DNA from: Escherichia phage vB_vPM_PD06 | Sequence record: NC_052653.1 | Strand: one strand, 5' to 3' | DNA: 64,000 bases | In this document: in pieces, positions 5,948-61,652 of the stretch | Layout of the letters: each line of letters starts with the position of its first letter | How positions within the stretch are numbered: position 1 is the first letter of the stretch | Program-made: the position numbers and the translations under genes | The notes under the pieces: model-generated | The model's input: only the letters and a program-made list of their open reading frames with translations | Database searches by the model: none | What the model was told of the DNA's origin: nothing

Positions 5948-5955
5948 TTTTACTC

Positions 5956-44232: not shown

Positions 44233-44955
44233 ATGATCGAGAATTTTTTCAAACAAGTAAAAGTGGACAATAGCTTCTTTATCAAAGCTGCCGATCAAAT
44301 TGTTGCTTGGAATGCTAAGGCACGTGGTGGCGTAACTCCAGAGTTTACTCAAGAGATGTTTGAAGCTCAACTTTCTTTTGTACGAGAAGAACTAAAAGAG
44401 TTCCAAGCAGCAGCACAGGAAAATGATCACGTTGAATTACTTGATGCAGCAGCAGATATTTTTGTGGTAGCATCCTATCTGGCGTTTATGTTCTTTGGTA
44501 AAGAAGGTGTTGATAAAGCTCTGGAAATGCCGACAGGAGATGTTCTGGCAGAAAACATCTACGATGTTATCATTGAATTTGATAAAATGGTAGAAAATGA
44601 CTTGCAATTTGCCCTAATGTCTCTTACACTTACACGTATGGCACGAGATACTTTGGTGCGTTCTGTTTATAACGAGAAGAAGGTTATGCGTGAAGTGTTG
44701 AATAGCAATGAGTCCAAGTATCCTACCAAGAAGCAACTCCTGGCTATTTGGGAAACTAAGGATATTGTTGAAGCTCTTGAAAAAGAGTGTGATGCTATCG
44801 AGATGAGAAGCAAAGATCGTGCAGAAGGTTCTTATACTGGAGTACATGCTGTATATAACGAAGTTCAAAAGGTATACGTATTCTTTGATGACAAAGGTAA
44901 AATTATGAAGCCATCTACCTTTGTTAAACCTAATATCGCAGCAATCATTGCTTAA
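44233..44955 (+). CDS. MazG-like all-alpha nucleotide pyrophosphohydrolase (possible dimeric dUTPase type)
   Basis: 240 aa; EELKEFQAAAQENDHVELLDAAADIFVV resembles the MazG/HisE metal-binding helix pair. Confidence 0.4.
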   Translation: MIENFFKQVKVDNSFFIKAADQIVAWNAKARGGVTPEFTQEMFEAQLSFVREELKEFQAAAQENDHVELLDAAADIFVVASYLAFMFFGKEGVDKALEMPTGDVLAENIYDVIIEFDKMVENDLQFALMSLTLTRMARDTLVRSVYNEKKVMREVLNSNESKYPTKKQLLAIWETKDIVEALEKECDAIEMRSKDRAEGSYTGVHAVYNEVQKVYVFFDDKGKIMKPSTFVKPNIAAIIA

Positions 44956-44991
44956 GAAATAAAGCCCCTTCGGGGGCTTATTGGAGGTATT

Positions 44992-45270
44992 ATGTTAACA
45001 GCAGAAGATATCTTTAAACACGGTTTGCGTCAGGTAATCAAATCCTTGAAGAATGCAGGTATTGAAGATATCACACAGGAAATTGTTGGTTTAGAAAAAG
45101 AAGGTAAGAGAACAGAATTTAAGTTTTACACAGAAGAACAGTGGTTGAGTAATCCGCAAAACAAAGCTAATGAGGCTGTTAGTCTGTTTGGTAAATCTTA
45201 TAAAGGATTTAAATATCCTGATCATATTGTCGAATATGATGGTGTAAAATATTTTGTAGTTGTTATTTGA
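44992..45270 (+). CDS. hypothetical protein
   Basis: 92 aa ORF. Confidence 0.35.
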   Translation: MLTAEDIFKHGLRQVIKSLKNAGIEDITQEIVGLEKEGKRTEFKFYTEEQWLSNPQNKANEAVSLFGKSYKGFKYPDHIVEYDGVKYFVVVI

Positions 45271-45280
45271 GGAGAAAATT

Positions 45281-46165
45281 ATGTTTGCTAAAAATTTCAA
45301 ATCTTGCGTAACCCTGATTTCTGGTGATGGTCTGTCTATTTCAGCACTGAACACAGTAACAGACAAACCGCTGGATTTTGTTGTGGCACAGGGGCAACAA
45401 GCACATACCATTGGTCTTGTTCGTTTTGAAGATGATGGTTCCTATGTAAAAGTGTTCTCTGGTTTAGAGGTTATTAAAGTAGGGCAGTCTGTTAAGAAAG
45501 TTAACAAGAAGAAAGTTAAACGCATTCTTAATGAAAAACTCCAGGAGATGGAACAAGAGTTTATTACTGCAAATCCTACTAAAGAGTTCTTCTTGGACAA
45601 AGAAAGCAAAAAAGCAATTGAGGCTGATATTGTGTTTTCTCTGCTCCCAGAAACAGAGGCAGATGATTTCTATAACTATGTTGTTGTAGACACTGAAAAC
45701 AGTATTACCTATGTTCTTAATGGTACTAAGAAAATTAGTGAAGATATTGCTGTATTTCTTCGTGAGGTGTTGGGTACTTTCCCAGTTCTGCCGTTTAGTG
45801 TACACGAAGAAGCCATTATTAAAGGTTTTGATACCATCTTAGAAGAACATGAAGCTGAACGACTGACCCTGGGTAATTATATTAAACTTGAAGATTCGGA
45901 AGGTGTGGTTGTATGGAGTAAAGAGTCCCTTTATGAATCTCGTGCAGTAGAACTTATGGAAGATGGTAAGCACGTTGTTGCCATTGGCCTGGAATATGAC
46001 GGCTTCGTTAACTTTATTGTTGATAAAGAATTTAAGTTGAGTGGTATTAAATTCCCTAAATACTTTAATGATGAAGAAGGATCTTTTGAAGCATCTGTCC
46101 TTCTGTGCTTTAACGAAATCCGTGGTATTATGCAAGACCTTATCAAGTCAACTATTCAAAAATAA
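45281..46165 (+). CDS. rdgC: recombination-associated protein RdgC-like
   Basis: ATG at 45281 with GAGGAG RBS; SLLPETEADDF and FLREVLGTFPVLPFS align with E. coli RdgC segments from memory. Confidence 0.5.
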   Translation: MFAKNFKSCVTLISGDGLSISALNTVTDKPLDFVVAQGQQAHTIGLVRFEDDGSYVKVFSGLEVIKVGQSVKKVNKKKVKRILNEKLQEMEQEFITANPTKEFFLDKESKKAIEADIVFSLLPETEADDFYNYVVVDTENSITYVLNGTKKISEDIAVFLREVLGTFPVLPFSVHEEAIIKGFDTILEEHEAERLTLGNYIKLEDSEGVVVWSKESLYESRAVELMEDGKHVVAIGLEYDGFVNFIVDKEFKLSGIKFPKYFNDEEGSFEASVLLCFNEIRGIMQDLIKSTIQK

Positions 46166-46198
46166 TACTTGACTTACTAATTTAATATGTGTTAATAT

Positions 46199-46227
46199 GC
46201 CTACCTACTTAGTTAGGTGGGCTTTTA
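46199..46227 (+). terminator. intrinsic terminator after rdgC
   Basis: GCCTACCTA-CTTAGT-TAGGTGGGC hairpin followed by TTTT. Confidence 0.45.
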
Positions 46228-46239
46228 AGGAGACACACC

Positions 46240-46452
46240 ATGAAAAAACTTCTTGTCGGTTTACTTCTAGTAATCAGTTCTTATTCTTATGCTGGTCAAA
46301 TAACTTTAATTAATTCTGGAGAACAAGTTTCTGGAAGTACAAAATACTGTTTTTACTCTAACGGTATGTACGACAAGGTTATAGAGGTTTCTGCAAGTCG
46401 TCAGTGTCCCTACACACGAACATTCTCAACAGAGAGTTCAGATGATGAATAG
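46240..46452 (+). CDS. small secreted protein
   Basis: 70 aa; N-terminal signal peptide MKKLLVGLLLVISSYSYA. Confidence 0.4.
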   Translation: MKKLLVGLLLVISSYSYAGQITLINSGEQVSGSTKYCFYSNGMYDKVIEVSASRQCPYTRTFSTESSDDE

Positions 46453-46460
46453 GAGGTAAT

Positions 46461-47579
46461 ATTAGCGGTTACATTTTAATCCAACCGGAAGACCTGCACA
46501 AATATGTTGACGAGAACACAATTCTTGCAATAGACTACGATCAAGTGGCGTTCCAAGCATCTTCGGCTTTAGAACAAAGAAAAATCCACGCTGTACACAA
46601 GGCTTCCGGTAATGTAAAAGAGTTTGAAACAAGAACAGATTTTTGGGGTAAATCTTCAAAAAATATTGGAGGATGGTTAGGAGCACTTAACGCGCAACGC
46701 GAAGCTGCTGGTAAGAAGTTGTTCTCTAGAGAAGATTTTGAAATAAAAGATGTTCAAATAGTCCCAGATAATATTTCTTTTACGTTTCAAGCTGCAAAGA
46801 CAAAAATAACCCAGATGATGGATCACCTAAAACTTCAAAAGTATTGCGGTGTCATCGGGGTAGGAAAAACCTTCCGGCATTCTTTCAAAATGCCAAAAGA
46901 ATATAAATCAGAACGATCAGATTTAAGACCAATCCATTTATCAGATACTAAAGATTATCTAGTTGAAAAACATAACGGTGACGTTGTTACTGGTATTGAG
47001 GCAGATGATGCTTTAGAAATCTATGGATATGCAGGGTATAAAGCCTACAAGGAAACTGGTAAGTTTTCTCATATTGTAGCATCTATCGACAAAGATAGCT
47101 TGCACACACCAAGTTTACTCTTTAACTTTTATAAAGAGGATGGTGTTTATAAAAATCCTTGTATTATTCTGATTGATGAATCTATTGGTGATATCTGGAT
47201 CGTAGAAAAAGGTAAGAAAAAAGAAATTAAGGGTTGGGGTAGTTACTGGTTAGCTTATCAAATGCTAATGGGTGATAAGACAGATAGTATTCGACCTTAC
47301 CAAGATTTCGATGTTAAGTTTGGAGATATTACTTGCTTTAATCTTATTTCCAAATGTAAAACACAGGCTGAACTTTTTCAGACAGTTAAAGATCAGTATT
47401 ATGAATGGTTCCCAGATGGCGTTAAATTTACTTCTTGGGATGGTGAAGAAGTAGAGATGACAACTGACGAATGGATAGAGACAATTTTTCAGTTGGTATA
47501 TATGAAACGTTGGGCGAATGATGAAACAACTTTTGAAAGTATGCTACAAGCATATATTTCAGAGCAGGAGGAACATTGA
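46461..47579 (+). CDS. rnh: RNase H / 5'-3' exonuclease (FEN family); 5' end uncertain
   Basis: GIEADD motif, LMGDKTDSI motif, and N-terminal ILAIDYDQVAF resembling the T4 RNase H N-terminus; conserved N-terminal residues lie upstream of the first in-frame GTG (46545) with no in-frame ATG. Confidence 0.5.
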   Translation: MSGYILIQPEDLHKYVDENTILAIDYDQVAFQASSALEQRKIHAVHKASGNVKEFETRTDFWGKSSKNIGGWLGALNAQREAAGKKLFSREDFEIKDVQIVPDNISFTFQAAKTKITQMMDHLKLQKYCGVIGVGKTFRHSFKMPKEYKSERSDLRPIHLSDTKDYLVEKHNGDVVTGIEADDALEIYGYAGYKAYKETGKFSHIVASIDKDSLHTPSLLFNFYKEDGVYKNPCIILIDESIGDIWIVEKGKKKEIKGWGSYWLAYQMLMGDKTDSIRPYQDFDVKFGDITCFNLISKCKTQAELFQTVKDQYYEWFPDGVKFTSWDGEEVEMTTDEWIETIFQLVYMKRWANDETTFESMLQAYISEQEEH

Positions 47580-48538
47580 GTAAATTAACAGACGAACAGA
47601 AAGCCTTGATTGTATCTATGAAAGCACAAGGTTATTCTTCGCGTAAGATTGCACAAGAGGTGTTGGGAAGTTCTACTAAGAAGAGCACAGTAAATGATTA
47701 CTTAGCTCGTGTAAATTCACCACATCGCGGTGCTCCGCAAGATAAAGGTGGGCCAGTAATTAAAATTATTGACGTAGAGACAGCACCTGAGATTGTGTAT
47801 AGCTTCTCACGTTTCAAAGCCTTTATTGCACCTGAACAAGTTATTCGTCGAGGTTACTTGCTTTCCTATTCATCTGCTGATTTAGAAACAGGAGAAGTAG
47901 AAGGTAAGAACCTTAGCAATTACCCTCTGTTTGACATAGATCATACAGATGATTGGGAATTATGTCAAGATCTGTGGCACTTGCTTGACGATGCAGATAT
48001 TGTGATCGCGCACAACGGTATTAAGTTTGATAAGGCTTATATTAACCAACGTTTTGCTTTTCACGGTATGGAGCCACCATCACACTATGTTGTAATTGAT
48101 ACACTCAAGGTAGCTAAGAAGCAGTTTGCACTACCTTCTAATGCGCTTAAAGAAATGTGTTTGTATTTTGATACAGAAAACTTTAAACTTGATAATGAAG
48201 GTTTTCCTTTGTGGAAAGCATGTTGTGAAGGAGACAGACACGCCTTCTTCCGTATGCAAACATACAACGATGGTGATGTTGTTTCTCTCAGAGATCTTTA
48301 CATCAAACTTCGTGCGTGGATTCCACAACATCCTAACGTATCTGCATTCTATGACGATGAAAAACTTCGTTGTCCTCGTTGCGGTAAAGAGCACCTTGAA
48401 GTTGTTCCTGGTAAGGTTTACACAACAGCGGTTAGTACATTCCAAGTGCTAAGATGCACATCATGTAATAGCCTGTCTCGTGGACGTGTTAATTTGCGTA
48501 GCAAAGAGAAGCGTGTAAACACTGTTATTGGAATTTAA
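47576..48538 (+). CDS. DEDD-family 3'-5' exonuclease with N-terminal HTH and C-terminal zinc ribbon
   Basis: 320 aa; IIDVETAP and HNGIKFDKAY exonuclease motifs; CPRCG...CTSCN near C-terminus. Confidence 0.45.
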   Translation: MSKLTDEQKALIVSMKAQGYSSRKIAQEVLGSSTKKSTVNDYLARVNSPHRGAPQDKGGPVIKIIDVETAPEIVYSFSRFKAFIAPEQVIRRGYLLSYSSADLETGEVEGKNLSNYPLFDIDHTDDWELCQDLWHLLDDADIVIAHNGIKFDKAYINQRFAFHGMEPPSHYVVIDTLKVAKKQFALPSNALKEMCLYFDTENFKLDNEGFPLWKACCEGDRHAFFRMQTYNDGDVVSLRDLYIKLRAWIPQHPNVSAFYDDEKLRCPRCGKEHLEVVPGKVYTTAVSTFQVLRCTSCNSLSRGRVNLRSKEKRVNTVIGI

Positions 48539-49721: not shown

Positions 49722-49766
49722 TAAAATATTATCGCTCCCACAAACGGGAGCGTTAGAGGAGAAAAT

Positions 49767-50330
49767 ATGGCTAAACTTTATTTCCGATATAGTCCGATGA
49801 ACAGTGGTAAAAGCACACATCTTCTACAAACAGCTTGGAACTATAAAGAAAGAAATATGAAAGTTCTTCTTTTAACTTCAGCTTTAGATACCAGATCTGG
49901 TGGTGCTATTGCTTCTAGGATAGGTATTAAAGAGGAAGCAAAACCAGTTAAAACAAAAGAAGATATGCTGGAAATTTATACACAACTTAAAGAGAATCCA
50001 GTAGATGCAGTATTTGTGGATGAATCACAATTCCTAACTAAAGATATGGTTGACATTCTTGGAGATGTGGTAGACAATTACGATATTCCTGTATTCTGCT
50101 ATGGACTTAAAACAGATTTTGCTACAGAATTGTTTGAAGGTTCTGAACGGTTATTAGCCATAGCAGATTCAATTACAGAATTGAAAAGCATTTGTAAATG
50201 TGGAAGAAAAGCTATTTTCAATGCTAGACTTATCGACTCTAAAGAACAGATTGTTATTGGAGGAGAAGACATTTACGAAACAATGTGTAGAAAATGTTAT
50301 AACAGGAGAAATAATGCGTCTAGTATGTGA
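49767..50330 (+). CDS. tdk: thymidine kinase
   Basis: 187 aa; P-loop SPMNSGKST, DESQF motif, C-terminal Cys cluster. Confidence 0.7.
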   Translation: MAKLYFRYSPMNSGKSTHLLQTAWNYKERNMKVLLLTSALDTRSGGAIASRIGIKEEAKPVKTKEDMLEIYTQLKENPVDAVFVDESQFLTKDMVDILGDVVDNYDIPVFCYGLKTDFATELFEGSERLLAIADSITELKSICKCGRKAIFNARLIDSKEQIVIGGEDIYETMCRKCYNRRNNASSM

Positions 50331-50904
50331 TTGGGATTTAGTAATAGCTCCAGCGGATATAGAATGGTTAAATTGGTTAAATGCGGTAAGTAGATCTAAT
50401 ATCAAATTTGATAAGACACATAAAACTGTGCACTATGATATTACGAAATATTTCCCTGATTTTAAAAAGCAATTTGGTGTAGATCCTTACTCTTTTTGGG
50501 ATAACCAACATCTATATGATACTATGGGAGTAGTACCTAATAGTACAGATGTTGTTCATCGTATAATTGCAAATGGATCTAATATATCTATAGCGAGCCA
50601 CACTAAAGGTGGACACCTTAGTTCTAAATATAGACACGTAACACGATCTTTAGATAAAGTGGATTTTAGTAGAACATCTGGTAATGGTTTTTTCGCAACA
50701 AAAGAAAAATACTTATTACCTTGCGATGTAACTATTGACGATAGGGCTGAAAATCTTGTCCTGTTTCCAGATGAAACGTTGAAAATATATTTCAACACTA
50801 TTTACGAAGATCCATATTTGGAAGAGTTAAAGAAACTTCCTAATGTAATTATCACTGGTTTAGACAATCAGTGGGAAGAAATTGAAAGTATTTTACTACC
50901 TTAA
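50314..50904 (+). CDS. putative HAD-type 5'(3')-deoxyribonucleotidase
   Basis: ATG at 50314 with GGAG upstream, overlaps tdk 3' end by 17 nt; N-terminal CDWDLVIA gives a DxD motif; assignment tentative. Confidence 0.3.
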   Translation: MRLVCDWDLVIAPADIEWLNWLNAVSRSNIKFDKTHKTVHYDITKYFPDFKKQFGVDPYSFWDNQHLYDTMGVVPNSTDVVHRIIANGSNISIASHTKGGHLSSKYRHVTRSLDKVDFSRTSGNGFFATKEKYLLPCDVTIDDRAENLVLFPDETLKIYFNTIYEDPYLEELKKLPNVIITGLDNQWEEIESILLP

Positions 50905-50913
50905 GGAGAAATA

Positions 50914-51885
50914 ATGACAAATTCTATTTCAGCAAAAATTATTGCACACTCTCAAACATCCGAAGGTAAGGATATTGTTACCTTTGAACTTGAATATCCT
51001 CGAATCATTCACTCTGAATTGATGACGCATCGTTTGTTTTCTCGTAATGCAGCATCAAGTCGAGCTATCCCTGTTAAAACTCTAATTGAAATGGTACGGC
51101 AATCTCCAGCACGTCCTTATCGTTTTGGTGCTAACCAACCAGGTATGCAAGATAAAGGCACAGATCACGATGCCCTGATTGATGCAGGTTACACTGCAAA
51201 AGAATGGTGGGACTTGGCTGCTCTAAGTGCTGCACGTTTTGCAGAAGAGTTTGCCCTTGCTGGTTATCATAAACAGGTTGCAAACCGCCTACTAGAACCA
51301 TTTCAGCGTATGAAGACTGTAGTAACCACTACAGAACTAGAAAACTTCTTGTGGTTGCGCGTAGATGCTGATGCAGATCCTACTATTGAGGCTCTTGCTA
51401 AAGAAATTAAAAAACTGTATGAATCTTCTGAACCATATCTTCTTTTCCCAGGAGAATGGCATACACCTTACGTTAATCGTGATCGAGATCCAGAAACTGG
51501 TATGATCCGTTATTTCTTGGGTGAAACCTTCTCCAACGAGAAAATGTTGACAGAAGACGAAGCAAAAGCTATTTCAGCTTCTTGTTGCGCTCAGGTAAGT
51601 TATCGTAAGTTGAATGATACTAAAGATAAAGCATTGGATATCTATTCTCGTTTGCTGTCTGGACAAAAGGTACATGCATCTCCGTTTGAACACCAGGCAA
51701 CGCCAATGAAAGAAATGGATTTGTCAGGATTAAAACAACAGAAAGGTGGTATTAATATTCCTCCGTTCCCTTCCTCTTGGGAAGAAGGTATTACACACAT
51801 GGATCGTAAACATCGTTTGTGGAGTGGAAACTTCTGTGGTTGGATTCAACATCGTCAACTTTTGACAAACCATACAAAATGGTGA
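50914..51885 (+). CDS. thyX: flavin-dependent thymidylate synthase (ThyX-like)
   Basis: 323 aa; THRLFSRNAASSR matches the ThyX RHR-x7-S-x-R signature except Thr for the first Arg. Confidence 0.55.
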   Translation: MTNSISAKIIAHSQTSEGKDIVTFELEYPRIIHSELMTHRLFSRNAASSRAIPVKTLIEMVRQSPARPYRFGANQPGMQDKGTDHDALIDAGYTAKEWWDLAALSAARFAEEFALAGYHKQVANRLLEPFQRMKTVVTTTELENFLWLRVDADADPTIEALAKEIKKLYESSEPYLLFPGEWHTPYVNRDRDPETGMIRYFLGETFSNEKMLTEDEAKAISASCCAQVSYRKLNDTKDKALDIYSRLLSGQKVHASPFEHQATPMKEMDLSGLKQQKGGINIPPFPSSWEEGITHMDRKHRLWSGNFCGWIQHRQLLTNHTKW

Positions 51886-52665: not shown

Positions 52666-54927
52666 GTGACTCAGTATCTAAGCAAATCTATCCGTTATGT
52701 AACAAAAACAAACGGCAAGAAAGAAGAATTTAATCCAGAAAAACTTCGTAAATGGTCAGAGTTTGCTGCTGGTAAATTAAATTGGTCTGAAATTGAACTT
52801 GAAGCTGTTAAACGTTGTTACGACGGTGTGCCTACTCGTGATTTACATAAAGCTATGATAGCAGCATGTATTGATAAGAAAGATCAGGCATACAGTGATA
52901 TGGCAGGTCGGTTACTTCTTGGTATGATTTATAAACAGGCTCATGGGGGATATCACAATATCCCCTCCCTCCTGGATTTCTACAATATGTCTGTAAGTAA
53001 AGGCTATTGGGGAAAAATGGATTATACAGAAGAAGAAATTATTGAGATTGGTAAGATTGTCAATCACGATAAAAACCTAACTTATGGTTATTCCGTACTG
53101 CGCCAGATGGTTGATAAGTATCTTGTGAAAGATGCGATCAATGATGTTGTTTTTGAATCACCACAGTTTTTATTTATTGGTGTAGCAATGAAGGTAATGG
53201 AAATCCAACCAAAAGATCGCAGAGTAGAAGACATTAAACGTCTATATACCTACGTAAGTGATCTTAAGATTAATTTACCATCGCCTTATTTAACAACTTT
53301 GCGTACTAAGATTAAAGGTAGTGCTTCTTGTTGTCTGTTTAGAGCAGATGATACAGCAGAATCTTTAGCAATTGCTAACTATCTTGCGCATGAATATACA
53401 TTGAATAATGCAGGTATTGGTGTTAACCTTCAAACCCGTGCCACAGGACAAGGTGTTAAGAACAACCGTATCGTTCACGGTGGTCTTTTACCATATCTGA
53501 AATGGATGGAGACAAGTGTTGGAGCATCAAAACAAGCAAGTCGTGGTGGAAGTGCAACAGTAACGTTTACAATACTAGAACCTGATTTTGAAGATCTGGT
53601 ACGTTTGAAAAACCCAACTACTGTTAGTGAAAAACGAGTAGATAAACTTGATTACTCTATCGTAGTAAACAATGCTTTCCTGCGCCGTGCAGCAAAAGGT
53701 AAAGATTGGATGCTAGTTAGTTATGACGAAGCACCAGAACTCTATGAGGCGCTTTATAAAAGCGAGGAAGAGTTTGAAGAAGTATATGAAAAAGTTAGTC
53801 GCAAACGTATTAAGAAGAAGTTTGTAAAAGCACGAGATCTTCTGGCAGAAATTATTACACAAAGAGCAGAGACAGGACGTATTTATATGTTCTTTGCGGA
53901 TAATGCTAATAGGCATACTCCGTTTAAGGATGTTATTTATCAGTCAAACTTGTGCCAAGAAATTTTCTTACCTACGAAAGCATTTCACAATATGACTGAT
54001 CTTTTCACAGGTGAGAATACAGAAGATCAAGAATTGGCATTATGCTTCCTGTCTTCTATTGTAGCTGGTCGTGTTACACCAGAAGAATATGAAGATGTTG
54101 CATATTATACAGTTCTAACTATTGATAATGTTATTGAAACAATGCAGTATCCGTTTAAACATAACGAAATCACTGCTAAAGCACGTAGGTCTATCGGTGT
54201 AGGTATTACAAACCTTGCACATTATCTGGCAAGTAATTTTGTTACTTATTCAGATCCTTACGGCAAAAAACTAATTCACGAATTAGCAGAAAGGCATTAT
54301 TACTGGTTAGCAAGAGCTTCTCTTCGTTTGGCAAAAGAGAAGGGTAATGCACAATGGATGCATAAAACCAAATGGCCTGAAGGATGGTTGCCTATTGACA
54401 CCTACGCTAAAGCTGTAGACGATATTGGCAATTTTAAACTTAAAATGGATTGGGAAGGTTTACGACAAGATATCATTGCACAAGGTGGTATCCGAAATAG
54501 TGTATTAGCAGCTATTGCTCCAAATGAGTCCAGTAGTCTTGTAAGTAATACGACTAACTCTGTGTATCCTGTACGTGATACTATAGTTTATAAACAAAGC
54601 CAAAAAGGTAATGTTCTGTTTATTGTGCCAGATTACGATAAACTAAAAGATATTTACCAATCGGCTTGGGATACACCAGATAAAGATATGGCTGAAGCAT
54701 ATGGACTGTTGACTAAATTCTTAGATCAAGGTGCATCATGTGATAAGTGGATTGACTATTCTAAGATGGAAGGTGGTCGTTTATCCATTAAATCAGAAAT
54801 GCAATATATTCTTCAGTTTGCAAAACTTGGTGGTAAATCTTTGTACTATCTAAATAGCAGAACAAAATCGGCAACCTCACTCGCTCAAGAGGATGAAGAA
54901 TCCGGTTGTGAGTCTTGTAAGATGTAA
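52666..54927 (+). CDS. nrdA: ribonucleoside-diphosphate reductase alpha subunit (class I)
   Basis: 753 aa, GTG start with AGGAGAGGAA upstream; class Ia size, paired with nrdB. Confidence 0.7.
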   Translation: MTQYLSKSIRYVTKTNGKKEEFNPEKLRKWSEFAAGKLNWSEIELEAVKRCYDGVPTRDLHKAMIAACIDKKDQAYSDMAGRLLLGMIYKQAHGGYHNIPSLLDFYNMSVSKGYWGKMDYTEEEIIEIGKIVNHDKNLTYGYSVLRQMVDKYLVKDAINDVVFESPQFLFIGVAMKVMEIQPKDRRVEDIKRLYTYVSDLKINLPSPYLTTLRTKIKGSASCCLFRADDTAESLAIANYLAHEYTLNNAGIGVNLQTRATGQGVKNNRIVHGGLLPYLKWMETSVGASKQASRGGSATVTFTILEPDFEDLVRLKNPTTVSEKRVDKLDYSIVVNNAFLRRAAKGKDWMLVSYDEAPELYEALYKSEEEFEEVYEKVSRKRIKKKFVKARDLLAEIITQRAETGRIYMFFADNANRHTPFKDVIYQSNLCQEIFLPTKAFHNMTDLFTGENTEDQELALCFLSSIVAGRVTPEEYEDVAYYTVLTIDNVIETMQYPFKHNEITAKARRSIGVGITNLAHYLASNFVTYSDPYGKKLIHELAERHYYWLARASLRLAKEKGNAQWMHKTKWPEGWLPIDTYAKAVDDIGNFKLKMDWEGLRQDIIAQGGIRNSVLAAIAPNESSSLVSNTTNSVYPVRDTIVYKQSQKGNVLFIVPDYDKLKDIYQSAWDTPDKDMAEAYGLLTKFLDQGASCDKWIDYSKMEGGRLSIKSEMQYILQFAKLGGKSLYYLNSRTKSATSLAQEDEESGCESCKM

Positions 54928-54967
54928 TGAAACTAGGGGGCTTTGTCCCCCTTTCTTAAGGAGGAAT

Positions 54968-55303
54968 ATGCCTACATTAGTTGTATTACCTGGGGCAACA
55001 CCACAAAGACGCTGGGGAAATTATACACTGGTAGATAGTAAAGATTTTACATTCGATTGGTGTTGTCATTATATTGCAGGTTTTCAATTTTCCAGTGTTG
55101 AAATATGGGCTTCCAATGATCCCATAGCTACCTGGTATGCTTTAACCAGAGCAAGGTATGAGGGAGAGGTTACTATACTACTCACAAAGAGTGTATGGGA
55201 CGCATTAGAGAAGGCTTACATAGAGAATGGTATGGAGAGAAAACACATTGATACAATAAAAGCAATGTGTGATATCGTGGAGGATTTAAATGGCAGCGAT
55301 TAA
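54968..55303 (+). CDS. hypothetical protein between nrdA and nrdB
   Basis: ATG at 54968 with AAGGAGG RBS; 111 aa. Confidence 0.35.
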   Translation: MPTLVVLPGATPQRRWGNYTLVDSKDFTFDWCCHYIAGFQFSSVEIWASNDPIATWYALTRARYEGEVTILLTKSVWDALEKAYIENGMERKHIDTIKAMCDIVEDLNGSD

Positions 55304-56375
55304 TTTATACAACGACACTTACAAAGAAGGTTTCTACCCTGTATTTTTGGGAGAACAGTTAGGTATTTTTGATTCTATTAATGTAACATACCCAGAAATG
55401 CATCGTCTGTACAAACTACAAAAACAGCAAGATTGGGATGAAAACGAAGTAAACTTAGATCAGACACGAAAAGATTTCGTAGCTTGTTCTAAAAGCAACT
55501 ACGATGTTATGATCAAAAACCTATCCTTCCAATGGGAAAATGATTCACTTGCTAAATCAATCATCACTTTGTTTGCACCATTTTTAAGCAACAACGAAGC
55601 ATGTGCAATGATGATGAAGCAATCAGAAATGGAAGTTCTACACGCTTTGACATATTCTGAAATTATTCGTCAGTGTATCCCTAATCCAAATGAAGTTATC
55701 GATCAGATTATGGAGAACGAAAGAATCTTCCAGAGGATGGGTATAGTTGAAGAGGTAATGAGTGATCTGGCAGAGGCAGGACATAAATATGCTCTAGGTC
55801 TGATTGAGAAGGATGATAACCTTCGTCTACTGATCCTGAAAGGAATGATTGCACTTATCGGTCTGGAAGGCATTCAATTCATATCCTCTTTTGCTGCAAC
55901 ATTTGCCTTAGCAGAGCAGCAACTGTTTGTAGGTGCAGCTAAACTCATTCAAAAAATTATGTTGGATGAACTATTGCACGTTAAAATGGATTATGCTATT
56001 ATTGATGCACTGCTGAAAGATCCTGTTTGGAGAAAAGTATACGAAGATAATATCGACGTTCTGACAGAAATTCTTGACACGGTAGTTGGACAAGAGGAAG
56101 ATTGGTGTGACTATCTGTTTAGTGAAGGAAGGGTTATCGTTGGTGGTAACGCAGAGTTGTTCAAACTTTGGGTTTACTTCAATGCTGCGCCTATCTATCG
56201 CAGACTGAAAATGAAACACAAATTCCGTGCACCGAAGAAAAGTCCACTGCCTTGGATGGATGTTTGGTTAAATCCAGATCAAATTCAAGCAGCAGCACAG
56301 GAGATCCAAATTACAGCTTACAAACTGAATTCAGCAAATAAAGATGTAAGTGATGACGAGGAGTTAGACTTCTAA
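55290..56375 (+). CDS. nrdB: ribonucleoside-diphosphate reductase beta subunit
   Basis: 361 aa; paired ExxH motifs (MEVLHALTYSE, DELLHVKM), acidic C-terminal tail. Confidence 0.65.
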   Translation: MAAINLYNDTYKEGFYPVFLGEQLGIFDSINVTYPEMHRLYKLQKQQDWDENEVNLDQTRKDFVACSKSNYDVMIKNLSFQWENDSLAKSIITLFAPFLSNNEACAMMMKQSEMEVLHALTYSEIIRQCIPNPNEVIDQIMENERIFQRMGIVEEVMSDLAEAGHKYALGLIEKDDNLRLLILKGMIALIGLEGIQFISSFAATFALAEQQLFVGAAKLIQKIMLDELLHVKMDYAIIDALLKDPVWRKVYEDNIDVLTEILDTVVGQEEDWCDYLFSEGRVIVGGNAELFKLWVYFNAAPIYRRLKMKHKFRAPKKSPLPWMDVWLNPDQIQAAAQEIQITAYKLNSANKDVSDDEELDF

Positions 56376-56593
56376 TGAAACTACTTTGTGTTGGATTAAT
56401 TTCTGACTTCAAAGACGTTTTCGAAAAGGGAGCCTCTTACGAGGCTTCCGAATTACAGAATGGTTTCTGTGATGTTTACGGCAAACGTTTAAAAAAGAAT
56501 GGTGATCATTGGCTAGGAGTTATGTCTTGCGGTCATATTATAGTTAATGGTGTAGCCAAGTTTGAAATTATCAAAGGAGAAAAAGATGATTGA
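56375..56593 (+). CDS. hypothetical protein
   Basis: 72 aa ORF. Confidence 0.3.
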   Translation: MKLLCVGLISDFKDVFEKGASYEASELQNGFCDVYGKRLKKNGDHWLGVMSCGHIIVNGVAKFEIIKGEKDD

Positions 56594-56768
56594 TTTTGTT
56601 GATGTAGATATTAATTCTGACTTAACAGAAGATGAAGGTGGTGCTTTTGTATGTTCAGATGGAGAGAAATGTTTTACTCTGATGGTAGAGACTTATGATG
56701 GTATCACAGAAATTCTATTAACAGAGAATGAGTTAAAACAGATGTTAGAAAAGATTGAGGAGCTTTAA
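56586..56768 (+). CDS. hypothetical acidic protein
   Basis: ATG at 56586 with AAGGAG RBS. Confidence 0.3.
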   Translation: MIDFVDVDINSDLTEDEGGAFVCSDGEKCFTLMVETYDGITEILLTENELKQMLEKIEEL

Positions 56769-56770
56769 TA

Positions 56771-56917
56771 ATGGACGATGTAAGTATTTGTCCTATCTGC
56801 GGTGGTACTGGGAATTTTATTGTTAGTATGGAACAATTTATTCCTTGTTGGAATTGTAACGGCTTAGGTTTCGTTCATACAGAAGAAAAAGAAGAGGAGG
56901 AAGATAGTGGGGGTTGA
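56771..56917 (+). CDS. small zinc-ribbon protein (48 aa)
   Basis: CPICGGTG...CWNCNG pair of CxxC motifs; below ORF-track cutoff. Confidence 0.35.
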   Translation: MDDVSICPICGGTGNFIVSMEQFIPCWNCNGLGFVHTEEKEEEEDSGG

Positions 56918-57233
56918 TATTGCATGGCGTATGTTACAGGGTGCACCTTTTAATAAATGGGAAGAGGCTGTAGGAGAAGATCCTAGAATTGAAGAAGAAT
57001 TTGATGGAGATTTTAATTGGTTCTTACAAGAAGGTCTTGATTTAAGCCGTATCTCTCCTTTCTATGATGCTGATGAATCTTATTGCATATATGGCATTTA
57101 TTTAGAAGGTGGCGAAGGAAGTGTAGCTGTAGATCTTGAGCAACTAAATAAGAATGCAAAAGAAGCCTATGCACAACTTCTTGAAAAATATAACATTGAA
57201 ACGGAAACTATTATTTCTCAACACGTTTGGTAA
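56907..57233 (+). CDS. hypothetical protein
   Basis: GTG start with GAGGAGG upstream; 108 aa. Confidence 0.3.
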   Translation: MGVDIAWRMLQGAPFNKWEEAVGEDPRIEEEFDGDFNWFLQEGLDLSRISPFYDADESYCIYGIYLEGGEGSVAVDLEQLNKNAKEAYAQLLEKYNIETETIISQHVW

Positions 57234-57246
57234 GGAGGATAGTAGA

Positions 57247-57444
57247 ATGATGCTAGATCAACTGATCAATGCTCCTCGCGTAACAGTAAGTCCAAAAACA
57301 TTTGCATCACTTTTAGAAGATGCTAGAGAGGTTTATAACTTTACTGAAGAAGAGCTTCCTGTTCCTGTTGAAAAAGGTTCCAGATGGTTGTTTTATGAAG
57401 GTATTATTTTTACTGAAGGGAATAATTGGAAGGAGACTAAATGA
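57247..57444 (+). CDS. hypothetical protein
   Basis: ATG with AGGAGG RBS; 65 aa. Confidence 0.3.
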   Translation: MMLDQLINAPRVTVSPKTFASLLEDAREVYNFTEEELPVPVEKGSRWLFYEGIIFTEGNNWKETK

Positions 57445-58430
57445 AATACTTAGTAACAGGTGGTTTAGGCTTTATTGGAAGTGCGGTAGTTCGTTTCCTA
57501 GCTAAAAATACTAAGAATGATATTTACGTTATAGATAAATGGGGTTACGCTTCAGACCCTAGAAATTTATCAGAAACACCTAATGTAAAGTTTTGTCGTG
57601 TTGACTTGACAAATGCTCAGTTAACTGCTAAGATTGTGGCAGATGTTAACCCAGATTATATAATGCATCTTGCAGCAGAAAGTCACGTAGATAATTCAAT
57701 AGCATCACCGAGTGTTTTTATAAATTCAAATATTGTTGGAACATTTAATCTTCTAGAAGCTGTTCGTTTAATGGGAGATAAATCAAATCTTAAAATGTTT
57801 CATCATATTTCAACAGATGAAGTGTATGGTGATATGGAAGAAGGGGATTATCCGTTTACAGAACAGAATCCTTATAAACCAAGTAGTCCATATGCTGCAT
57901 CTAAAGCTGCAAGCGATCATTTGGTAAGAGCGTGGCATCGTACTTATGGTATTCCGACAGTTATAACAAATTGTTCAAATAATTTTGGAGCGTATCATCA
58001 TCCAGAAAAACTAATACCTAAAACGATAACAAATATCTTGATGCATAAACCAATCCCTGTTTATGGCAATGGTCTTCAAGTAAGAGACTGGCTATACGTT
58101 GACGATCACGCAGAAGCATTACACCTAGTAGTAACTAAAGGCAAATCTGGAGAAACATATAATATTGGGAGCAGAAACCCTAGAACTAATATTGATGTAA
58201 TCTATATGATTTGTGATTATATGGATGCGGTATATCCATCTGAAACAGATGCTTGTAGCCTCATTGAGATGGTTACAGATAGGCCTGGGCATGATCTAAG
58301 ATATGAAGTGAATCCTTATAAGATTGAAAAGGAATTAGGGTGGAAAGCTAAAGGCACATTTGAAGAAAAACTTTATTCAACCATTGATTGGTATGTAGAT
58401 AACAAAGAGTGGTGGGAAAATAAAGTTTAA
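57441..58430 (+). CDS. rmlB: dTDP-glucose 4,6-dehydratase
   Basis: 329 aa; N-terminal [14 protein letters not shown] Rossmann motif, [11 protein letters not shown] catalytic YxxxK. Confidence 0.75.
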
Positions 58431-58438
58431 GGAGGAGT

Positions 58439-59308
58439 ATGAAAGGTATTATCTTAGCAGGTGGTAGTGGAACAAGACTTTACCCAGTTACTAAAGGGGT
58501 TAGTAAACAACTATTACCAATTTATGATAAGCCTATGATTTATTATCCACTCTCTGTCCTAATGCTTTCTGGAATTAGGGAAATACTAATAATTACAACA
58601 CCAGAAGATCAAATTAATTTTGTAAATCTTCTAGGTGATGGTTCTTCTTTTGGTATTTCCCTACAGTATGCAATACAGGATAGTCCAAGAGGTTTAGCAG
58701 AAGCGTTTATTATTGGTGAGAACTTTATTGGTGAAGATTCTGTAGCACTTGTGCTAGGTGATAATTTATTCTTTGGTCAGAGTTTTGGTAGCATTTTAGA
58801 TTCTGCTAAAGAACATATTGAAAAGAATGGTGGAGCTAATATTTTTGGGTATCACGTAAATGATCCTGAAAGATTTGGTGTTGTTGAGTTTGATTCTGAA
58901 GGTACAGTGGTAAGTATTGAAGAAAAACCAAAAGCACCAAAAAGCAACTATGCAATTACAGGCTTGTACTTTTACGATAATTCTGTTATACAGAAAGCTA
59001 AAAGCGTTAAGCCTTCTGCTAGAGGGGAGTTAGAGATTACAGATATAAATGAGATGTACTGGAAAGAAAAGGCTTTACGTGTCTGTAAGCTAGGAAGAGG
59101 TTTCACTTGGCTGGATACAGGAACACATGAAAGTCTTATGGAAGCATCTCAATTTGTTCATGCAATAGAAAAGCAACAAGGTATGAAGGTTGCATGCCTA
59201 GAAGAGATTGCTTTTAAAAATGAATGGATTACTTTAGATTCTGTAAAAAGTTCTGGAGAGGTTTTAAGTAAAACAGACTACGGCAAGTATTTACTTAAAT
59301 TAAAATAA
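58439..59308 (+). CDS. rmlA: glucose-1-phosphate thymidylyltransferase
   Basis: 289 aa; N-terminal [18 protein letters not shown] signature. Confidence 0.75.
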
Positions 59309-59320
59309 GGGGGAGATTAA

Positions 59321-59875
59321 ATGATTCAAGCAACAAAAATCGAAGATTTGTTGATCATTCAACCTGACGTTTACGGGGATGAACGTGGTTTTTTCTTAGA
59401 AAGTTTTAATCAGGCTTTATATGATCAATACATAGGTAAACAAAACTTTGTCCAAGATAACCATTCACGTTCTATTCGAGGAGTTCTACGTGGGCTTCAT
59501 TTTCAAAAGAAAAACCCACAAGGGAAGTTAGTACGTTGTGTTCGTGGTGAAGTTTATGATGTTGCTGTAGATATTAGGGTTGGTAGTCCAACATTTGGAG
59601 AATGGGTAGGTGTTCTTTTATCTGAAAAGAATAAAACACAATTTTGGATTCCTCCTGGTTTCGCTCATGGCTTTGTTGTGATTAGCGACATTGCTGATTT
59701 TGAATATAAATGTACAGAATATTACGATCCGACTTCAGAGTGTAGTCTTGCGTGGAATGATCCAGATATCAATATAGATTGGGGTTTTGATTTAATCTTT
59801 AATGATATTAATTTTAAACCTATCTTGTCACAAAAAGATCAGGAAGCCAAAACACTAAAGGAGATCATATTTTGA
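59321..59875 (+). CDS. rmlC: dTDP-4-dehydrorhamnose 3,5-epimerase
   Basis: 184 aa; LRGLHFQ motif and cupin-like pattern; position between rmlA and rmlD. Confidence 0.65.
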   Translation: MIQATKIEDLLIIQPDVYGDERGFFLESFNQALYDQYIGKQNFVQDNHSRSIRGVLRGLHFQKKNPQGKLVRCVRGEVYDVAVDIRVGSPTFGEWVGVLLSEKNKTQFWIPPGFAHGFVVISDIADFEYKCTEYYDPTSECSLAWNDPDINIDWGFDLIFNDINFKPILSQKDQEAKTLKEIIF

Positions 59876-60702
59876 CAAAATTTTTAATCTTTGGTTCAAA
59901 AGGTCAATTAGGACAATCTTTGGCAAAAGTTGCACCAGAAGATGTTATTTTGATTGAAGCAAGTGATATAGACATTACCAACTTTAAAGATGTTATGAAT
60001 AGTCTTGTACAGCACGTGCCTGATGTTGTTGTGAATTGTGCGGCTTACACGGCAGTAGATAAAGCTGAAGAAGATGTTAACACCTGTATAAATGTTAATG
60101 CATACGGTGCAACAAACATTGCCAAAGCATGTAATGATTTACTGATACAGTTTGTACATATTTCAACAGACTATGTTTTTGATGGACATGTTGCTGGCAC
60201 AGAAGAGAGTAAAACAAACCCCTTGAACACCTACGGTTACAGTAAACAATTAGGTGAAACTTTAGTACAAGCAGTTTGTCCTACAGCACTTATTATCAGA
60301 ACAGCTTCTGTTTATAGTGAATTTGGACATAACTTTTTGAAAACTATGTTGGAACGCTACAACGGTGGTCAAAAAGAATTTAATGTAGTATGTGATCATT
60401 TATCATGTCCTACTTATGCACCTGATCTTGCAGAAACAATTTTTAAACTTGTAAAAGATGGTGTAAATAGTAAAATTGTACACTATGCAGGTGCAGATTA
60501 TATTTCTTGGTATGATTTTGCACGTAAGATATTTCTTGTTATAGATTTGTCTGTTACAGTTAATCCTGTATCTGCTTCAACCTATAATTCTAAAGCAGTC
60601 AGACCAGCAACATCTTATTTAAAAACAGATCCTACTTTAAATCCGCGAAGTGTTGATAGCGGTATTGTAAGAACTTTAACTATACTTTTAAACAAGGAGT
60701 GA
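59872..60702 (+). CDS. rmlD: dTDP-4-dehydrorhamnose reductase
   Basis: 276 aa; N-terminal FGSKGQLGQ Rossmann motif; overlaps rmlC stop. Confidence 0.65.
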   Translation: MTKFLIFGSKGQLGQSLAKVAPEDVILIEASDIDITNFKDVMNSLVQHVPDVVVNCAAYTAVDKAEEDVNTCINVNAYGATNIAKACNDLLIQFVHISTDYVFDGHVAGTEESKTNPLNTYGYSKQLGETLVQAVCPTALIIRTASVYSEFGHNFLKTMLERYNGGQKEFNVVCDHLSCPTYAPDLAETIFKLVKDGVNSKIVHYAGADYISWYDFARKIFLVIDLSVTVNPVSASTYNSKAVRPATSYLKTDPTLNPRSVDSGIVRTLTILLNKE

Positions 60703-60965
60703 AAATGAATTTTATTATCTACGGTAAACCAAATTGTCCTTTCTGCACTAACGCTAAGACTCTACTGGAACAGCGTGAACAGGATTTTAAATATCTTACC
60801 TTAGATGAAGACTATTCTTTAGATCAGATTCAGAATCTGGTTTTAGAGAAAACAGGTGTTCTGCCACGTACCTTTCCTCAAATTTTTGTGGAAGATGGTG
60901 AACATCTAACCCACGTAGGAGGTTTTTCTGAACTACGTGAATTCATGGCTCAGATTGCGGAGTAA
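60699..60965 (+). CDS. glutaredoxin (NrdH-like redoxin)
   Basis: 88 aa with CPFC active-site motif. Confidence 0.6.
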   Translation: MKMNFIIYGKPNCPFCTNAKTLLEQREQDFKYLTLDEDYSLDQIQNLVLEKTGVLPRTFPQIFVEDGEHLTHVGGFSELREFMAQIAE

Positions 60966-61626: not shown

Positions 61627-61629
61627 ACA

Positions 61630-61652
61630 AAGGGGCGAAAGCCCCTTTTATA
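61630..61652 (+). terminator. intrinsic terminator after endolysin
   Basis: AGGGGC-GAAA-GCCCCT hairpin (identical to the 48544 hairpin) followed by TTTTAT. Confidence 0.45.

Follow-up and report, generated by a model that had tools for sequence, protein, structure and literature searches.

A conserved dTDP-L-rhamnose pathway in a phi92-like coliphage and the glycosyltransferases that may use its product

Introduction

What does a virulent coliphage do with activated rhamnose of its own making? The question is raised by Escherichia phage vB_vPM_PD06 (NC_052653.1), a phi92-like E. coli myovirus (Justusliebigvirus, Stephanstirmvirinae), of which a stretch of 64,000 nucleotides, hereafter the window, was analyzed. 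Four contiguous genes at window positions 57441-60702, in the order B-A-C-D, had been predicted to be rmlB, rmlA, rmlC and rmlD, and three uses for their product had been put forward: glycosylation of virion proteins, modification of DNA, or remodelling of host surface polysaccharide. The cassette itself adds nothing new: its annotation goes back to the phi92 and phAPEC8 genomes and is now found in dozens of GenBank records. Its oddity has also been noted in print, with a proposal of DNA glycosylation (Olsen 2020; Maffei 2021) that was later repeated (Vitt 2024). The point of interest is what the sugar is attached to. With some of the broadest host ranges among coliphages, Stephanstirmvirinae are therapy and biocontrol candidates. 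If their particles do bear a rhamnose glycan, this would have consequences for how antibodies recognize them, for their stability and for their interactions with mucus, and it could form a shield that matters for persistence in the gut, immune recognition and phage therapy. A rare, site-specific sugar on DNA, if present, would be a novel type of DNA modification. The present analysis adds comparative points, among them the insertion of the cassette between nrdB and grx and a set of four glycosyltransferases in all close relatives.

Identity of the four enzymes

The open reading frames start and stop exactly as first predicted:

57441..58430, plus strand: rmlB, dTDP-glucose 4,6-dehydratase, 329 aa (TIGR01181, PDB 1g1a, motifs)
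58439..59308, plus strand: rmlA, glucose-1-phosphate thymidylyltransferase, short form, 289 aa (TIGR01207, PDB 1iim, motifs)
59321..59875, plus strand: rmlC, dTDP-4-dehydrorhamnose 3,5-epimerase, 184 aa (TIGR01221, PDB 1dzr, motifs)
59872..60702, plus strand: rmlD, dTDP-4-dehydrorhamnose reductase, 276 aa, TTG start overlapping the rmlC stop (TIGR01214, PDB 1vl0, motifs)

Assignment was based on NCBIfam equivalog profiles with their curated cut-offs, and Pfam served as a second check. All four proteins clear the cut-off: RmlB with 441.7 bits against 365.1, RmlA with 472.5 against 360.65, RmlC with 259.8 against 155.75, and RmlD with 254.3 against 224.05, a margin of just 30 bits. Pfam is concordant for all four, and the original names stand. 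Membership of another nucleotide-sugar family and loss of catalytic residues were both looked for, and neither was seen. GalE, Gmd, CDP-glucose dehydratase, GalU and other rival families all score far under their own NCBIfam cut-offs; in particular, RmlB reaches 121.8 bits on GalE against a cut-off of 262.3. On these scores a UDP-glucose epimerase or other SDR identity is rejected for both RmlB and RmlD. The top match among solved structures is in each case the named enzyme (RmlB, 1g1a, 1e-116; RmlA, 1iim, 6e-125; RmlC, 1dzr, 6e-64; RmlD, 1vl0, 2e-44).

The motifs are also intact. RmlB has GGLGFIG, the NAD-binding GxxGxxG, at residue 7, STDE at 124-127 and YAASK at 151-155, aligned identically to 1g1a, where we take the catalytic residues to be T133, D134, E135, Y167 and K171 in S. 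enterica numbering. RmlA has GGSGTRL at 8, LGDN at 106, EKP at 162 and LDTG at 225, and keeps both Mg-binding aspartates (in LGDN and LDTG) as well as the EKP lysine. RmlC has RGLH at 57, GKLVRC at 68, FEYK at 127 and SQKD at 170; its His, Lys and Tyr align to H63, K73 and Y133 of the S. enterica enzyme, while SQKD is placed by pattern match only, since the 1dzr alignment stops before D170. Presumably H63 and D170 form the catalytic His/Asp dyad, with K73 and Y133 as further catalytic residues. RmlD carries GSKGQLG at 8 (a GxxGxxG motif), STDYVF at 98 and YGYSK at 121, with the Thr and Tyr-x-x-x-Lys triad present. All four steps to dTDP-L-rhamnose are encoded and look intact. Sequence alone does not separate L-rhamnose, the predicted product of RmlD, from the C4 form 6-deoxy-L-talose, which homologous reductases make.

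The phage enzymes belong to the same four families, with the same intact motifs, as the RmlABCD (rfb/rml) enzymes that bacteria encode in clusters for O-antigen and cell-wall polysaccharide. Phage RmlA, RmlB and RmlC have their best structural relatives in Salmonella and E. coli, and RmlD is nearest to those of Clostridium and Bacillus among the solved-structure matches. The setting is different. Bacterial rml genes are accompanied by flippase and polymerase genes in a polysaccharide cluster, in the order B-D-A-C in E. coli, whereas the phage genes lie B-A-C-D in a virulent phage, within a ribonucleotide-reductase module.

Gene context and insertion site

The surroundings of the cassette are those of nucleotide supply:

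49767..51885, plus strand: tdk, an NT5C-like ORF and divergent thyX, a canonical thymidylate supply, farther upstream within this block of genes (Pfam)
52666..56375, plus strand: nrdA, a small ORF and nrdB, a class Ia ribonucleotide reductase module (Ribonuc_red_lgC 332.5 bits, Ribonuc_red_sm 116.9 bits)
56375..57444, plus strand: small ORFs between nrdB and rmlB, the last overlapping the rmlB start by 4 nt (ORF list)
60705..60965, plus strand: glutaredoxin (CPFC), alternative GTG start at 60699 (PF00462 49.2 bits)

Pfam confirms tdk (TK, 185 bits), thyX (Thy1, 37 bits, cut-off 24.8), NrdAB and the downstream glutaredoxin, all of which had been named in the original prediction. The ORF between tdk and thyX scores 23.4 bits on NT5C, under the cut-off of 24.8. 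Two of the small ORFs before rmlB (56907-57233 and 57154-57444) were scanned and gave no Pfam match; phAPEC8, KP2025 and 05F01 have similar small ORFs at the corresponding place.

The stretch first marked out (57441-60965) takes in the glutaredoxin, which does not belong to the rhamnose genes. In Vequintavirus WalterGehring, Grx follows directly after NrdB with no rml genes between, so the glutaredoxin belongs to the reductase module, and the rml cassette was inserted into that module between nrdB and grx. The insertion would have occurred in an ancestor of Stephanstirmvirinae.

The genes are tightly packed, with 8 nt between B and A, 12 nt between A and C, a 4-nt overlap of C and D, and a 2-nt gap between D and grx (a 4-nt overlap if grx begins at GTG), and a strong Shine-Dalgarno sequence precedes each gene of the rml-grx run. 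Translational coupling of the rml genes is plausible from this spacing, by which they would also be co-transcribed with the nucleotide-supply genes. A promoter and terminator scan gave 42 promoter-like sites against 49.7 in shuffled sequence, that is, no enrichment from which expression timing could be inferred.

Distribution and conservation

More than 50 Justusliebigvirus genomes in GenBank carry the same cassette at 98-99% nucleotide identity, mostly annotated as rml, and the amino acid sequence of RmlC is 100% identical to that of many relatives. In Phapecoctavirus (phAPEC8) the cassette has the same synteny. The present phage is another isolate of Justusliebigvirus, with no material difference from phi92, phAPEC8 and other Stephanstirmvirinae in this respect. 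All four rml genes are under purifying selection and are conserved over diverged genera with saturated synonymous change. The earlier suggestion that a virulent phage retains the pathway for its own purposes is supported. A recent origin by capture from E. coli is rejected, as the cassette has at most 65.5% nucleotide identity to any of 5426 E. coli genomes. A search for RmlC homologues returned 17,114 ordinary RmlC relatives, the best at about 60% identity and one partial match at 72%, and is of little help in tracing the donor lineage.

So far as is known, the product of RmlB is made in all Enterobacterales by way of RffH and RffG of the common-antigen (ECA) pathway, but only some serotypes have RmlC and RmlD. 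A pathway of its own would therefore free the phage from the O-antigen type of its host.

Partner glycosyltransferases

If RmlB-A-C-D make dTDP-L-rhamnose from glucose-1-phosphate and dTTP in the infected cell, a transferase is needed to use it. The original prediction had recognized none; this holds within the window, but extending the search to relatives reveals four in every close relative examined, about 17 kb past the window's left edge and, in complete relatives, about 70 kb from the rml genes. They lie beside the primase-helicase and comprise two GT-A and two GT-B enzymes, the latter paralogues. The GT-B enzymes match Glyco_trans_1 families in Pfam, and a homologue appears under the name 'RfaG' in one GenBank record. 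The two small transferases, GT3 and GT4, have a Rossmann-like GT-A fold with a conserved DxD metal/nucleotide-sugar motif; the fold was assigned by structural comparison of models, with TM-scores to PDB entries of just 0.4-0.5. These comparisons give no clue to the acceptor. Sequence searches of GT1 and GT4 against solved structures returned nothing meaningful, and none of the four matches an NCBIfam profile.

We infer that these transferases use dTDP-rhamnose, and the identity of the acceptor is likewise deduced. With a probability of roughly 0.7, the pathway is active and supplies dTDP-L-rhamnose as donor for the phage's own transferases. The sugar would most likely be the donor for the four soluble enzymes, which may assemble a short glycan containing rhamnose on an acceptor in the cytoplasm. 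Points against such a link are the roughly 70 kb between the two gene sets and a co-occurrence that is inseparable from shared ancestry. Of the pathway, Klebsiella phage KP2025 retains only RmlC and RmlD, and with them two of the four transferases, one GT-B and the GT4-type GT-A, which argues that selection acts on the end product.

The reduced pathway of KP2025, acting on a host intermediate, can also be read in terms of metabolic diversion without any transferase. RmlC and RmlD would drain host dTDP-4-keto-6-deoxyglucose from common-antigen synthesis, or dTDP-rhamnose would inhibit the host's RmlA/RffH and so spare dTTP for DNA synthesis. dTDP-rhamnose does feedback-inhibit RmlA, and the cassette lies inside the dTTP-supply block. 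Most members, however, also have RmlA and RmlB, which consume dTTP, and diversion leaves unexplained the conserved transferases, present even in KP2025; we consider it very improbable.

DNA as the acceptor

Use of dTDP-rhamnose by the phage transferases would fit several acceptors, among them a modified base of phage DNA, which like the glucosyl-hmC of T4 would evade host nucleases. This reading, the one already in the literature (Olsen 2020; Vitt 2024), has the gene layout in its favor, with rml among nucleotide-metabolism genes and the transferases beside primase-helicase and DNA polymerase. GT3 also weakly matches the TET-associated DNA glycosyltransferase (TAGT) family PF20691, but at 23.3 bits it is under the Pfam cut-off of 27.5. 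Apart from this sub-threshold hit, the four transferases match only Glyco_trans_1-type families in Pfam, and the T4 glucosyltransferase families, which we take to be PF09198 and PF11440, are absent; a weak match of GT3 to the PHROG of a T-even DNA glucosyltransferase (E 5e-5) is the sole T-even link.

A glycosylated base also requires a precursor. A C5-cytosine methylase in the genome (PF00145, 149.8 bits) could create one at specific sites, but no ThyA-type hydroxymethylase and no TET/JBP dioxygenase was found by Pfam among 30 large, mostly unannotated EmilieFrey proteins including the methylase neighbors, a scan that a very divergent enzyme could escape. Of the components of TET/TAGT cytosine hypermodification, then, the methylase is there, TET/JBP was not found and TAGT is below threshold. 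Thymidine kinase and ThyX, the latter being the only thymidylate-synthase-like protein found, supply ordinary dTTP, and ordinary bases are the presumed substrates of the Dam- and Dcm-type methylases. In addition, restriction systems of types I, II and III are ones to which the phi92-like group is described as 'exceptionally susceptible' (Maffei 2021), and the group, unlike T4 with its glucosyl-hmC, is sensitive to Druantia III-A. The T4 system resembles the present one in being a phage sugar-transfer system encoded among replication and nucleotide-metabolism genes. It differs in drawing on host UDP-glucose, a dCMP hydroxymethylase and dedicated DNA glucosyltransferases, and in conferring restriction resistance, whereas in the present group the hydroxymethylase was not found and the phages are restriction-sensitive.

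Together, the failure to find these enzymes, the normal dTTP supply and the restriction sensitivity argue against bulk DNA glycosylation. A rare, site-specific modification is possible. Of the three uses originally proposed, DNA modification is the least supported, and the evidence favors a protein or glycan acceptor; DNA is the least probable of the acceptor classes considered here.

Protein or envelope as the acceptor

The most likely acceptor would be a phage protein, as in virion glycosylation of the Che8 kind, although we give a virion or other protein rather less than an even chance. The specific proposal, that phi92-like and phAPEC8-like virions, or another phage protein, carry a rhamnose glycan made by the four transferases from phage-made dTDP-L-rhamnose, is more tentative. 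Some other or unknown acceptor would rank next. To our knowledge, a glycosylated virion would be the first among phages of Gram-negative enteric bacteria. The layout of the genes speaks against this reading: transferases in the replication module and rml in the nucleotide module are more like DNA-modifying phages than like late virion genes. Comparison of capsid, decoration, sheath, tube and portal proteins with those of Vequintavirus revealed no clear lineage-specific Ser/Thr extension, with sheath and tube slightly richer in Ser/Thr. No report of glycoproteins in phi92-like virions was found in the literature searched, which did not include the phi92 virion proteomics paper.

Giant viruses also make their own activated deoxyhexose for virion glycosylation without relying on the host (UDP-L-rhamnose in Mimivirus, GDP-sugar enzymes in chloroviruses), by UDP and GDP routes with other enzymes and in eukaryotic hosts. 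Among phages, capsids of the cluster F mycobacteriophage Che8 are glycosylated (Freeman et al. 2023, as cited in PMC11256854). GT3 has a homologue in the glycosyltransferase operon at the right end of Che8-genus (Cheoctovirus) mycobacteriophages: its profile matches Pacc40 gp98 with 71.7 bits, and the neighboring Pacc40 gp100 is 85% identical to Che8 gp110. About 340 mycobacteriophage tblastn matches, first taken as Che8 enzymes, are in fact this Pacc40 gp98-type protein. Che8 gp108-110 have no significant similarity to any of the phi92-type transferases (blastp E > 0.2, profile E 0.28), which makes the tie to mycobacteriophages an indirect one. Both systems comprise several phage-encoded soluble glycosyltransferases in one operon, and Pacc40 gp98 has a domain homologous to the GT3 family. 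They differ in that the Che8 and Pacc40 right ends examined hold no nucleotide-sugar pathway genes, whereas phi92-like phages carry rml, and in that virion glycosylation, shown for Che8, is a proposal for phi92-like phages.

The phage transferases could instead place rhamnose on the LPS core, O-antigen, common antigen or another lipid-linked glycan of the host, either as a block to superinfection or to keep progeny off debris. Rhamnose is commonly found in O-antigens, and surface glycans are recognized by the many tail fibers of these phages. The Glyco_trans_1 matches and the 'RfaG' homologue would suit such a role, as would two features a short way upstream of the transferases, a cell-wall hydrolase and a Ter membrane module. 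Yet no membrane segment is predicted in the four transferases or the neighboring small proteins, and the annotation shows no flippase, polymerase or ligase. A host range of many O types plus rough strains guarantees no single envelope acceptor, and the phage has a strictly lytic life style. We consider a host envelope glycan unlikely, behind a phage protein and ahead of DNA.

Two genes upstream of the transferases lies a 201-aa protein with a weak cupin match (18 bits, below cut-off) and no NCBIfam match, which was considered as a candidate dioxygenase or sugar isomerase.

Identity of the rhamnose genes

The original prediction of a complete dTDP-L-rhamnose pathway, encoded by four genes in the order rmlB-A-C-D, is borne out by open reading frames that match its coordinates exactly. 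Families were assigned with NCBI curated models and their equivalog cut-offs and cross-checked with Pfam, which agreed, and all four proteins score above the cut-off of the expected enzyme.

Features of the cassette and its 3' neighbor
57441-58430, + strand: rmlB (TIGR01181, 441.7 bits; equivalog cut-off 365.1)
58439-59308, + strand: rmlA (TIGR01207, 472.5 bits; equivalog cut-off 360.65)
59321-59875, + strand: rmlC (TIGR01221, 259.8 bits; equivalog cut-off 155.75)
59872-60702, + strand: rmlD (TIGR01214, 254.3 bits; equivalog cut-off 224.05)
Ending at 60965: small glutaredoxin with a CPFC motif, directly 3' of the cassette (ORF list)

Sister nucleotide-sugar families, including GalE, Gmd, CDP-glucose dehydratase, GalU and GlmU, all stayed far below their own cut-offs with these proteins. 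The nearest solved structures are the named enzymes (RmlB, 1g1a, 1e-116; RmlA, 1iim, 6e-125; RmlC, 1dzr, 6e-64; RmlD, 1vl0, 2e-44), and a motif search located all cofactor and catalytic motifs. The Salmonella residues that we take to be catalytic, counted from structure alignments (RmlB T133, D134, E135, Y167 and K171; RmlC H63, K73 and Y133), are all kept in the phage proteins. Thus the proteins fall in the expected families and not in other nucleotide-sugar families, with their catalytic residues in place, and the assignment has all the certainty that sequence analysis can give. The genes are separated by 8 nt, 12 nt, a 4-nt overlap and then a 2-nt gap, with a strong Shine-Dalgarno sequence 5' of every start, an arrangement compatible with translational coupling but no proof of it. 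Pfam likewise recognized the genes on either side, for thymidine kinase, ThyX, NrdA, NrdB and lysozyme.

The cassette is already known. More than 50 complete Justusliebigvirus genomes (phi92-like, Stephanstirmvirinae) share the 3.5-kb segment at 98-99% identity, and most of them already carry the dTDP-rhamnose enzyme annotation. The observation has been published, and so has the main hypothesis, DNA glycosylation (Olsen et al.; Maffei et al.; a 2024 paper that repeats 'rhamnose modification in Stephanstirmvirinae'). A full-text literature search found no experiment on what becomes of the sugar; the acceptor question is real and easily tested but narrow, and has stood in the literature since 2020. 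The closest relative of the window is vB_Eco_J-01, and the whole window is collinear with EmilieFrey (Bas61), a complete Justusliebigvirus genome (1-30041 corresponds to genome 27293-1, and 30042-64000 to genome 146666-112732). The only long stretch without a megablast match to EmilieFrey, 3278-6059, lies in the lateral tail fiber region (bas61_0026, a glycosidase/deacetylase fiber), so vB_vPM_PD06 probably carries a different receptor-binding allele there. Four GenBank records of ~146 kb named 'Campylobacter phage', with C. jejuni as host (MG065639, MG065645, MG065656 and MG065689), show a 98.8% match to this genus in the rml segment and are probably mislabelled or derived from contaminated lysates.

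An insertion in the nucleotide module

The gene order NrdA-NrdB-small ORFs-RmlB-A-C-D-Grx-small ORF-lysozyme-PhoH is kept in phAPEC8 (Phapecoctavirus) and Klebsiella phage 05F01. Vequintavirus WalterGehring, from the sister subfamily, has ThyX-two small ORFs-NrdA-NrdB-Grx without rml genes; the cassette has thus been inserted between nrdB and grx. The glutaredoxin is no part of the rhamnose unit, since in WalterGehring it lies directly 3' of NrdB with rml absent. It is a member of the ribonucleotide reductase module and would be its electron donor, as is usual for class Ia enzymes.

The cassette is under long-term purifying selection. Amino-acid identities to the window's B/A/C/D proteins are 63/72/63/54% in phAPEC8 and 60/71/51/40% in 05F01, with synonymous sites saturated in both comparisons; against EmilieFrey the four genes differ by 34 synonymous and 9 nonsynonymous changes (dN/dS 0 to 0.14). 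Recent capture from the host was considered and rejected: among the 5426 complete E. coli genomes, nucleotide identity to the cassette peaks at 65.5%, matches always span less than 80% of the query, and the genes on the chromosome run rfbB-D-A-C.

Several neighboring features deserve mention. ThyX (50914-51885; 323 aa) is long and divergent, matching Pfam Thy1 at 37 bits over residues 22-170 with THR in place of the usual RHR motif, and its role as a thymidylate synthase is putative. Between tdk and thyX, the ORF at 50314-50904 resembles the deoxypyrimidine 5'-nucleotidase NT5C (23.4 bits, under the cut-off of 24.8), which would be an odd partner for thymidine kinase. A 136-aa ORF at 54893-55303, with no Pfam match, bridges and overlaps both nrdA and nrdB; it is annotated in EmilieFrey (bas61_0221) and phAPEC8, and the Klebsiella phage KP2025 has an ORF in the same position. 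GC-rich hairpins before tdk (49733-49752), after nrdA (54936-54950) and after the lysozyme gene (61629-61648) may bound transcription units that take in the cassette; promoter-like matches were not above chance.

Transferases that may use the sugar

That the window holds no glycosyltransferase agrees with the annotation of the matching EmilieFrey segments. Outside those segments EmilieFrey has four, ~17 kb beyond the left edge of the window.

The missing TRANSFERASES in EmilieFrey
L001 (an EmilieFrey sequence stretch, own coordinates) 44552-47728, - strand: bas61_0046 to 0049, four consecutive genes (annotation)

They are flanked by a Ter-like module on one side and by the primase-helicase and DNA polymerase genes on the other. 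The 3.2-kb block is 97-100% identical in 53 Justusliebigvirus records, including vB_Eco_J-01, and 60-80% identical in Phapecoctavirus. The set comprises two GT-B paralogues, 40% identical to each other and matching Glyco_trans_1-type families and PHROG 7162, and two minimal GT-A enzymes. One of the latter, GT3 (228 aa), carries two motifs, an invariant F-x-F-D-D-D and Y-G-x-E-D, and its confident predicted model (pLDDT 88) adopts a minimal GT-A fold. Hydrophobic segments, of which the TerC control has many, are absent from all four enzymes, which should therefore act in the cytoplasm.

We put the probability that the pathway feeds this four-enzyme set of the phage's own at roughly 0.7. In tblastn searches of 50,697 phage records, organism counts for RmlC, GT3 and GT1 (another of the four) were 103/104/104 in Escherichia, 3/3/3 in Phapecoctavirus and 8/9/10 in Klebsiella, with no Vequintavirus record among the matches listed; with distributions so nearly equal, pathway and transferases seem to have been acquired or retained jointly, a pattern indistinguishable from shared ancestry. 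Beside the primase of a 135-kb relative, the GT3-type gene directly adjoins one for a sugar epimerase/dehydratase, which physically links sugar-nucleotide supply to transfer.

Just upstream of the transferases lies a tellurite-resistance-like module (TerC membrane protein, TelA, vWA-TerF-like; EmilieFrey stretch L002, 418-6318 and 6875-9090), with neighbors annotated as a macrodomain protein, a phosphoribosyltransferase and a HAD-like protein; the literature mentions the role of the phi92 ter genes as obscure. Two genes upstream of the transferases, bas61_0054 (L001 49079-49684; 201 aa) matches cupin at 18 bits, under the cut-off, and could be a sugar isomerase or dioxygenase.

Candidate acceptors

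The interpretation first offered for the cassette stands in part: dedicated phage use of the pathway is very likely, and of the three acceptors then proposed DNA ranks last in likelihood. In its favor, the strongest argument is that both gene sets lie in replication or nucleotide modules. To our knowledge, every known phage DNA glycosylation places the sugar on the hydroxymethyl group of a pyrimidine. Pfam searches of the C5-cytosine methylase neighbors and of 30 large, mostly unannotated EmilieFrey proteins returned no ThyA-family hydroxymethylase and no TET/JBP dioxygenase. The only thymidylate-synthase-like protein is the divergent ThyX, which together with thymidine kinase indicates ordinary dTTP supply. 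GT3 scores 23.3 bits against the TET-associated glycosyltransferase family (cut-off 27.5), and T4-type families are absent among the Pfam matches of the four transferases. According to the literature, phi92-like phages are 'exceptionally susceptible' to restriction systems of types I, II and III and, unlike T4 with its glucosyl-hmC DNA, respond to Druantia III-A as other restriction-sensitive phages do. Taken together, the failure of these searches to find a hydroxymethyl enzyme, the ordinary dTTP supply and the restriction sensitivity make bulk DNA glycosylation unlikely; a rare site-specific modification is possible, and transfer of the rhamnose to phage DNA in any form is improbable.

A host glycan is a possible though doubtful acceptor. 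Rhamnose is a common O-antigen sugar, and phi92-like phages are described in the literature as living by surface-glycan recognition, but the four transferases are soluble, the EmilieFrey annotation holds no flippase, polymerase or ligase, and a host range over many O types and rough strains assures no single envelope acceptor.

A phage protein or the virion is a candidate that we favor tentatively, at somewhat under even odds, and acceptors of other kinds take up the rest of the probability. Four transferases fit oligosaccharide assembly better than modification of a single base. Beyond its own subfamily, the only phage relatives of GT3 among the tblastn matches listed are ~340 mycobacteriophage glycosyltransferases. 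The homologue is of the Pacc40 gp98 type (family profile matching residues 127-296 of 540 aa, 71.7 bits). Its partner in the operon, gp100, shares 85% identity with Che8 gp110, which places a relative of GT3 within an allelic version of the Cheoctovirus glycosyltransferase operon. Two Cheoctovirus members, Che8 and Rita, reportedly bear glycans on their major capsid protein (Freeman 2023, as relayed in PMC11256854). However, Che8 gp108-110 themselves, tried as the mycobacteriophage relatives of GT3, have no significant match among the four phi92-type transferases. A distant homologue of GT4, the second small GT-A enzyme, has its gene between those for terminase and portal, alongside a GT2, a polysaccharide deacetylase and two methyltransferases; another heads a large phage glycan locus. 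Counting against the virion, comparison of capsid, decoration, sheath, tube and portal proteins with those of Vequintavirus showed no clear lineage-specific Ser/Thr extension; all that differs is a moderately higher Ser/Thr content of sheath and tube, together with a sheath C-terminus NRTANSQNSNSSTVSS.

A reduced pathway in KP2025

KP2025 has only RmlC and RmlD, at the same site between NrdB-proximal small ORFs and Grx (5983-7391 of its stretch L005); its RmlC and that of its close relative phi1_175008 are 77-78% identical to the window's. Its transferases are reduced to one GT4-type and one GT-B enzyme in the same place (stretch L007, 4382-5924), a pair also found in a metagenomic relative. 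Enterobacterales make dTDP-4-keto-6-deoxyglucose via RffH and RffG for enterobacterial common antigen, and, consistent with this, the cassette matches each of the 5426 complete E. coli genomes in at least one place. With the intermediate supplied by the host, RmlC and RmlD are predicted to suffice for dTDP-L-rhamnose, and the KP2025 set resembles a naturally pared-down form of the system, dependent on host RffH/RffG. This argues that selection maintains the end product and not the intermediate or dTDP-glucose, while the full cassette in E. coli phages suggests independence from host serotype.
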